From positions 256,001-320,000 of IMG/VR virus record IMGVR_UViG_3300042256_000013: 64,000 bases of DNA; one strand, written 5' to 3'. Positions 40,410-41,434 of this stretch are shown here, in pieces; the stretch's first letter is position 1; each line of letters begins with the position of its first letter. The DNA comes from a virus (lineage: Duplodnaviria; Heunggongvirae; Uroviricota; Caudoviricetes). A model generated the notes under the pieces. It ran no database searches. It saw only the letters and a list, made by a program, of their open reading frames with translations, and was not told the DNA's origin. The position numbers and the translations under genes were made by a program.

Positions 40410-40775
40410 TTAGCAGTGAAAAATAAACTTCGGGTTGTAGTAATCACAAACCTTTTTGATTTTCTCATGTTCTACTGTTCCATAAACAAACAGAAATTCA
40501 CACGGAACTTCAGACAAATACATGGTATTAGTACTGATGAAATGTAAATTTTCTATCTTTTGAACAGGGAAATGAGGATCAAAATTTAAACAGATAACAC
40601 AATTATCTTCAAGAGCAATTTCTTTAGTTGCTTCATAAATTCCTAATGCTTTATCATCATTTAAATTTGGTAGGTATATCTGATTCTGTTTTGTTAGATA
40701 AGAATCATACTCAATTAAAATTAGAAAATATCTCAACATTGTACTGTTGAAATATTCATTGTCTGCAAGTTCCAT
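40410..40775 (-). CDS. Hypothetical protein
   Basis: 121 aa ORF; GGAG RBS. Confidence 0.6.
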   Translation of the reverse strand: MELADNEYFNSTMLRYFLILIEYDSYLTKQNQIYLPNLNDDKALGIYEATKEIALEDNCVICLNFDPHFPVQKIENLHFISTNTMYLSEVPCEFLFVYGTVEHEKIKKVCDYYNPKFIFHC

Positions 40776-40876
40776 TGCCTAACTCCGTTAGTCAAGAATT
40801 TTCGTTAGTACTCACGTTGTTCGTACTTAACTCAATTCCTTTTAAACTATTTAATACGTTTAACACTGTTTATACT

Positions 40877-41394
40877 GACGGGGTTTGTTGATCTATTTGC
40901 ATCCCCCCGCAAAGGGGAACGAAAAAAAGTCAGAACTAAGCTGACGGTGGTGGTCTTACCATCTGAATTTGTAGATTTCACTCAAATTTTGGACGGATCT
41001 ATATTGTCTAAAATTTGTAGTAAACACTGGCGGGTTGTCCGGTTTCCAGTTACTACAGTCGCATACAACGGTCGGAGTTTTCTCATTGCTCCGCATATAG
41101 TACTTGCTAATTCAGCAACAGGTACTATTGATATTCCGTAGAATATCTCCCTTTTAACAGGTGAGTATGCCTCTAATGCCTATCTGGTGCGTTCATGTCA
41201 AGGACGCATTTAAAGTGCCGCATTGCCGTGGGTGGTACAAACTATGCCAACTCCTAACGGGTAAAATATATTGCACTCGTACTGATTGAACTACTCAACT
41301 GCTGTTTACTTTTCAACGAGATCAGGTTCAAACTATTCCATTTCTGGATCAATCAGAGTTTTTAAAACAGTGAAGACCTTTTTATGATCTTCAC
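40877..41394 (+). ncRNA. Candidate large structured non-coding RNA (alternatively a structured DNA element such as an origin)
   Basis: ~660 bp gap with no credible ORF, higher GC than its flanks, and at least 12 stems including a multi-branch junction. Wobble pairs read G-U on the plus strand. Confidence 0.55.
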
Positions 41395-41398
41395 ATAC

Positions 41399-41427
41399 AT
41401 TATAGCACAAAAATTACAATCGTTTCA
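41399..41427 (-). promoter_or_regulatory. Phage promoter class TGAAAC-N17-TATAAT (copy 5), firing into the structured non-coding locus
   Basis: Minus strand reads TGAAAC gattgtaatttt TGTGC TATAAT. The nearest downstream ORF start is more than 600 bp away. Confidence 0.75.
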
Positions 41428-41434
41428 TTTATTT

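Follow-up and report, generated by a model that had tools for sequence, protein, structure and literature searches.

A probable minus-strand gene for a large, multiply pseudoknotted noncoding RNA, one of five diverged copies in a jumbo-phage genome

The longest stretch free of ORFs in the window analyzed here, which comprises 64,000 nt (bases 256001-320000) of a 371,104-bp jumbo-phage genome, is quite probably a stand-alone minus-strand gene for a large, multiply pseudoknotted noncoding RNA that acts in trans through its fold. It is the fourth of five copies in the genome (copy 4), and it is predicted to extend from 41392 to ~40922 (a core of ~470 nt) or to ~40779 (~615 nt with the tail); positions are those of the window unless the genome is specified. 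An earlier note on this DNA had offered a novel structured RNA as one reading, and that part of it is now strongly supported by covariation, by conservation that reaches beyond the flanking genes, and by the failure to match any Rfam family, tRNA, or tmRNA. The Rak2-like jumbo-phage large RNA is a new family, absent from Rfam.

The gap measures 659 nt (40776-41434), as against 241 nt for the runner-up in the window, and the GC content of its core is 0.41, compared with 0.33 in both flanks; the description of the locus in the earlier note as the largest ORF-poor gap of the window, richer in GC than its surroundings, was thus accurate. The conserved element reaches further left than the start given there, 40877, to about 40779. 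Folded as a single sequence the locus does better than dinucleotide shuffles, but modestly so (z of -2.9 for the plus strand and -2.1 for the minus strand), and such folding does not discriminate between the strands; the argument for structure must therefore rest on comparison. The locus is judged not to be coding because ORFs across the copy-4 orthologues vary in frame and length, as well as in start, and the five-copy comparison revealed no ORF common to the paralogues. An SD-like UAAGGGAG was considered as the ribosome-binding site of a small ORF and was rejected, there being no conserved downstream start codon in the alignment. GenBank records PQ464595 (Kaldavass), LT960551/LT960552 (fHe-Yen9-04/-03), and PP191103 have two to four small 'hypothetical protein' CDSs over the homologous RNA locus; these are probably false ORFs, and the annotation of several GenBank records carrying such ORFs over these RNA genes would thereby be corrected.

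Exactly five copies were found in the genome whether by BLAST, by the paralogue alignment, or with R1, a covariance model of the core; they lie in one orientation at about 43.2, 129.3, 213.6, 297.1 (the present locus), and 359.3 kb, i.e., 86, 84, 84, 62, and 55 kb apart on the circular map. Each occupies an intergenic gap of 660-960 nt; R1 scores copy 4 at 105 bits (E 6e-22). Identity over the locus is ~94% to both Xanthomonas phage XbC2 and Erwinia phage Kaldavass; CBB, GAP32, BF, fHe-Yen9-04, 121Q, and others are also relatives. In more distant relatives, DNA-level alignment is left in the noncoding core alone, whereas that of the flanking genes is lost, which is the opposite of what is expected of spacer DNA. 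CBB and GAP32 have five copies each at matching positions and with similar spacing, and the covariance model detected at least four in 121Q. RaK2 has two divergent copies, which matched the model weakly and were confirmed using nhmmer (E 3e-41 and 2e-36); the core model detected nothing in PA5oct, Atu_ph07, or XacN1, although its sensitivity is limited and absence is not proven by this result. The core motif was found in 44 metagenome stretches, and copy 4 alone matched 62 GenBank records. In a maximum-likelihood tree the sequences of CBB, GAP32, BF, and fHe-Yen9-04 cluster by paralogue and not by genome, and the duplications must therefore have occurred before these phage genera diverged. Support for the copy-4 clade, which sits on a long stem beside copy 2, is 100/100, and this copy is the most derived of the five. 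The family is thus conserved in many sequenced Rak2-like jumbo phages and in metagenomes, each genome having five paralogues of ancient origin. A number of these phages (CBB, GAP32, 121Q, and phAPEC6 among them) are cultured on enterobacteria that are tractable in the laboratory, making transcript mapping, knock-outs, pull-downs, and cryo-EM feasible.

As defined here, the family has a core of P3-P4-P5-P6 with ACCCGUUAG...CACGGCAAURCGGC...GAUAGnnAU, a 3' domain combining PKc (GUUGY/RCAAC), PKd, and P12/P13, and its own promoter of the form TGRAAC-N16-18-TAYAAT on the RNA-sense strand, and copy 4 has the core, the 3' domain, and the promoter (41427-41399). For the comparative analysis, 34 distinct homologues were aligned in the RNA sense in three sections, namely the 5' half (A1), the 3' half (A2), and the tail (A3). 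The 78 consensus pairs are 96-98% paired, as against 28-49% when the partner strands are slid, and 48 of the 78 show two-sided changes. In A1, which covers P1, PKa, P3, P4, P4b, PKb, P5, and P6, 97.7% of positions pair versus 28-38% after sliding by one to three columns; 18 of its 34 pairs changed on both sides, and none of 500 shuffles reached its covariation score. The corresponding values for A2 (P8, PKd, P10, PKc, P12, P13, P14, and P15) are 96.0% versus 41-49%, with two-sided changes at 30 of 44 pairs. A model-based alignment of the core from 60 distinct sequences was 97.4% paired versus 31-45%. These alignments show that a predicted fold of about 15 helices and four pseudoknots (PKa, PKb, PKc, and PKd) has been maintained through compensatory changes; none of the pseudoknots appeared in the earlier note.

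Working from the 5' end of the minus strand, copy 4 begins with P0 (41360-41394), a 9-bp terminator-like hairpin, GUGAAGAUC...GGUCUUCAC, followed by UGUUUU; the predicted start of transcription, near 41392, lies inside its 5' arm. P0 occurs in the copy-4 and copy-5 lineages plus a few divergent copies, and together with UGUUUU it looks like a terminator of the upstream genes, acting on read-through from them. P1 (41282-41356) pairs CUGAUUGA at 41356-41349 with UCAAUCAG at 41289-41282; it is 99.3% paired with four covarying pairs, and it encloses the hairpins P1a (41348-41337) and P2 (within 41326-41299), the latter with a conserved loop, GAAAAnGUA. Almost all of the 34 homologues have P1a and P2, built from unrelated stem sequences. 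Around the 3' strand of P1, PKa joins GUA (41294-41292) to UAC (41281-41279); as GNA/UN'C it is 100% paired (UA 21, AU 10, CG 3). The core domain (41163-41277) comprises P3 (41277-41273/41218-41214), P4 (41260-41257/41229-41226), P4b, the P5 hairpin (41207-41189), P6 (41173-41163), and PKb, an AUG/CAU pairing of 41223-41221 with 41178-41176. Within it ACCCGUUAG and CACGGCAAUGCGGC are invariant and GAUAGnCAU is nearly so.

The 3' domain follows an invariant junction motif, AAGGGAG (41147-41153), whose GGG might pair at long range with a CYC at 40883-40881; the three columns read GC 34, GU 23/GC 10, and GC 34 without two-sided changes, and this is therefore a candidate pairing only. A hairpin at 41147-41130 is seen in copy-4 sequences, and it is followed by the P8 hairpin AUAGUAC...GUACUAU (41128-41097) and the P10 hairpin (41093-41073), after which comes GACCGUUG. 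In copy 4, P8 is rearranged, the order of its arms being shifted, but PKd, in which the seven nucleotides of the P8 loop pair with a 7-mer further downstream, persists as CUGAAUU (41115-41109) with AAUUCAG (40969-40963), a 7-bp complementarity that can be read directly from the copy-4 sequence. Overall PKd is Watson-Crick at 181 of 182 positions; in the other paralogues it is 99.5% paired and covaries at five of its seven pairs. PKc joins GUUGU (41069-41065) to ACAAC (41038-41034) and is Watson-Crick throughout (169/169), with two covarying pairs. P12 (41057-41053/40974-40970) and P13 (41050-41046/41030-41026) are 100% paired with four covarying pairs each. A module hairpin with the conserved loop ACAAUAUAGAUCCGUC occupies 41016-40984, and an intrinsic-terminator-like hairpin, GUCAG...CUGAC followed by U7, occupies 40945-40922. 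P15, CCCC...GGGG(GG), is followed by GGAUG and the 3' motif CAACAAACCCCGUCAG (together 40875-40917); the motif CAAAYCNCGUCAG comes after P15, and then the tail. All five paralogue groups have the conserved 3' tail (40779-40874), and it too shows covariation. It contains a long stem, GGAAUU (40839-40834) with AAUUC (40800-40796), an enclosed hairpin AGUAC...GUACU (40827-40807), and the terminal hairpin P18, CUAAC-GGA-GUUAG (40791-40779), with covariation at AU 13/UA 12, AU 11/UA 11, and AU 12/UA 11.

Most of the stems listed in the earlier note can be placed on this fold. Those at 41370-41394, 41282-41356, 41214-41277, 41187-41209, 41097-41128, 41073-41093, 41017-41056, and 40902-40918 correspond to P0, P1, P3, P5, P8, P10, P12/P13, and P15, respectively; its 12-bp stem at 40983-41017 is the module hairpin, its stem at 40929-40945 is the hairpin preceding U7, and its hairpin at 41130-41147 is the one seen in copy-4 sequences. 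The confirmed stems match family-level helices, the majority with covariation. The hairpin at 40949-40963 varies in register among the paralogues, and the proposed closing stem GCATAC (41061)/GTATGC (41165) was not confirmed: none of the other paralogues has an equivalent, and its arms occupy the P6 loop and the 5' strand of PKc.

A minus-strand promoter lies at the right end of every copy examined. Four of the five copies in this genome have it as TGRAAC-N16-18-(TGn)TATAAT; for copy 2 the paralogue alignment gives TGGATC-N17-TATAAT. In copy 4 (about 41399-41428) TGAAACG (41427-41421) is separated by a 16-nt spacer from an extended -10, TGcTATAAT (41407-41399), a 10/12 match with TG. The earlier note was correct in placing a promoter at 41399-41427, and it is conserved, but rather than firing through the locus against the RNA it is predicted to drive the minus-strand RNA itself. 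Copy 3 retains this promoter despite having plus-strand genes on both sides. In copies without P0, the 5'-most helix begins ~10-17 nt past the predicted start. The motif TGRAAC-N16-18-TAYAAT occurs 36 times in the genome, always on the minus strand; four occurrences precede RNA copies, and six lie 13-22 nt upstream of tRNA genes (e.g., genome 60406, 70830, 75146, 96162, 105948, and 117043), so the promoter drives stable-RNA genes. The copy-4 promoter belongs to the 'TGAAACG' class reported for CBB and GAP32 (PMC5259590). We infer the transcript, its ends, and its abundance from sequence; the literature search found no RNA-seq study of these phages. The U7 hairpin may mark the 3' end of the ~470-nt core form. 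That hairpin lies within the conserved region, however, and it is present in copies 2-4 and absent from copies 1 and 5, while conservation and covariation continue to ~40779; the ~615-nt form is therefore equally possible.

The earlier note had recognized no hallmarks of tRNA, tmRNA, RNase P, or group I/II introns, and the searches agree. Rfam 15 gave no match at the gathering score anywhere in the window and only chance-level matches to the locus at E <= 10, and no family recurred among the five copies; the models tested included ROOL, GOLLD, OLE, RNase P, tmRNA, group I/II introns, hammerhead, and Y RNA. ARAGORN called 30 tRNAs elsewhere in the genome but no tRNA or tmRNA within the window. 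A literature search found no description of the jumbo-phage RNA family. The 2023 viral structured RNA catalogue is restricted to motifs of 29-151 nt and could hold fragments of this RNA.

Few large RNAs have many conserved pseudoknots, and those that are understood are mostly ribozymes, ribonucleoprotein cores, and, recently, self-assembling RNA cages. As a best guess, we place the present RNA with ROOL and GOLLD in kind, as a folded RNA that acts in trans. Like ROOL (RF03087) and GOLLD (RF01998), the jumbo-phage RNA belongs to the 500-800 nt size class, is noncoding and phage-borne, and combines many helices with pseudoknots. ROOL and GOLLD are often found near tRNA genes; the counterpart here is a promoter class in common with tRNA genes. 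It differs from them in several respects: cmscan detects no resemblance in sequence or structure, even at E <= 10, its hosts are lytic enterobacterial jumbo myoviruses, and it has five diverged, regularly spaced paralogues per genome, an arrangement that to our knowledge has not been described for ROOL or GOLLD. We know of no comparable spacing pattern in any other phage RNA. Cryo-EM has shown ROOL and GOLLD as RNA-only multimers. PA5oct, a distant relative of the Rak2-like phages, has four RNA-seq-defined, ORF-free noncoding RNAs of 236-619 nt (ncRNA001-004; PMC7318152). These are likewise ORF-free transcribed regions of a jumbo phage, transcription being predicted in our case, but neither structure nor paralogy has been reported for them; R1 found no match in the whole PA5oct genome, and nhmmer found none between the ncRNA004 locus and the full-length profile.

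Under the trans-acting reading, host RNA polymerase would transcribe the locus into a stable RNA that would work through its three-dimensional fold as a scaffold, particle, or catalyst, with the five diverged copies supplying dosage or distinct subunits. The neighboring genes suggest no partner: those flanking the five copies (baseplate hub, endonuclease VII, and various unknowns) share no common family. A phage Ro-like partner, as had been proposed, finds no support, because TROVE (PF05731) had no match in the whole genome while control genomes scored; a TROVE-domain protein that would point to a Ro60/Y-RNA system was thus not found, and neither was a reverse transcriptase (PF00078, whole genome) of the kind associated with retron and other RT-linked noncoding RNAs. 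A trans role does not by itself explain the regular retention of five diverged copies at intervals of 55-86 kb. More speculatively, and we regard this as possible but doubtful, the five RNA genes might be non-redundant, either because each acts in cis, as an RNA-primed origin or an anchor of the 370-kb chromosome, or because together they build one hetero-oligomeric RNA particle or ribozyme; if cis sites or a hetero-oligomer were true, this would be a type of RNA machine so far undescribed in phages.

The most serious competitor, although an unlikely one, is that the copies are cis-acting, transcription-primed replication origins or serve some other position-dependent chromosome function, with an R-loop or primer forming at five sites and the fold aiding hybrid formation. 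T4 has several origins around its genome, and at oriF and oriG a phage promoter drives a transcript of several hundred nucleotides; the fold of ColE1 RNA II (about 550 nt) is needed for priming. A promoter-driven transcript of several hundred nucleotides would likewise be made here. Five co-oriented copies spaced as they are would seldom arise at random (by our own estimate, the probability of a minimum gap of at least 55 kb is about 0.005), and location would seem to matter, given that diverged copies have been kept at fixed positions. The spacing is similar in CBB and GAP32, but it is inherited through synteny and so constitutes one observation only. The CBB authors tie the promoter class to DNA-synthesis genes (PMC5259590), but the same class drives tRNA genes too. 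An origin of the T4 type, moreover, can make do with a promoter plus an unwinding element and has no need of ~15 covarying helices and four pseudoknots, and the jumbo-phage structure is far more elaborate and conserved than those of the T4 and ColE1 examples. The phage-specific promoter class is indeed present at the locus, but the downstream AT-rich stretch (40776-40875), listed in the earlier note as part of a possible origin, is the conserved, covarying, structured tail and not a plain unwinding element. The loci show no GC-skew inflection, although skew is weakly informative in phages.

We consider it very improbable that the element is a long structured 5' leader controlling the minus-strand gene at 40410-40775 in cis. 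The AUG of that ORF is four bases past P18, no strong terminator follows the tail, and in both copy 4 (40775-40795) and copy 2 (genome ~128957-128980) the P18 loop reads GGAG with the AUG of the next ORF within a few bases. However, the ORFs that follow copy 2 and copy 4 have no homology to each other, and the RNA tail therefore appears to supply their translation start region; the genes downstream of the five copies are unrelated, copy 3 has no downstream minus-strand gene at all, and a terminator-like hairpin with U7 stands ahead of the tail.

The trans-acting reading, like that of a leader, takes the RNA from the minus strand, in the sense of the neighboring genes. RNAalifold energies over the entire length are similar for both strands, and the strand was settled by the wobble counts and the promoter. 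Family-wide, helix wobbles read in the minus sense as 171 G-U versus 24 A-C, and the opposite strand must therefore tolerate 171 A-C mismatches; in P15 (98.8% paired) alone there are 40 U-G wobbles that are A-C on the plus strand. Together these show the predicted RNA to be minus-sense. The earlier note had read the imperfect pairs as G-U on the plus strand and had proposed an RNA antisense to its neighbors, transcribed from TATACT at 40871. That call was based on copy 4 alone, in which one P5 pair does read G-U on plus; XbC2 has a minus-sense pair there, and the rule fails across the family. A plus-strand RNA is barely credible: its slightly better folding z-score is outweighed by the wobble asymmetry, there is no conserved plus-strand promoter, the TATACT sits in the RNA-sense motif CGUCAGUAUA, conserved in most copies, without a proper -35, and the promoter and both terminator-like hairpins found in the promoter/terminator scan are all on the minus strand. 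Just as little credence can be given to a structure acting as single-stranded DNA, such as a hairpin-rich origin or recombination site. Covariation alone of course cannot separate RNA from single-stranded DNA, and among DNA mismatches G-T is tolerated best, but a conserved promoter is directly upstream in every copy examined, with helices following it at the short distance noted above, RNA typically has pseudoknots and conserved loops of this sort, and the flanking-gene search found no nickase or rolling-circle gene associated with the copies.

Some further features were noted in passing. All 30 tRNA genes (60-117 kb in the genome) are on the minus strand, and one that ARAGORN labeled tRNA-Pyl (genome 96039-96112, TGGAAC promoter ahead) has the anticodon CUA; it is possibly an amber-suppressor tRNA. 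The sign of the GC skew flips over a block of plus-strand structural genes at 215-255 kb of the genome, at the left boundary of which copy 3 lies beside a bidirectional terminator. The palindrome AGTACT forms the base of both P8 (41097-41128) and the tail hairpin (40807-40827). The loop of the module hairpin was found only inside these RNAs (40984-41016 in the window; 43197, 213715, and 359315 in the genome), and in copy 4 the module is inserted inside P12, a different insertion point from that in copies 1, 3, and 5. The inner part of P4 (41253-41231 in copy 4; columns 30-70 of alignment A4) is either short (~23 nt, as in copy 4) or long (~40 nt), and the two forms are distributed as a mosaic over the paralogues and genomes, a pattern suggesting that copies have exchanged modules or undergone gene conversion with one another.
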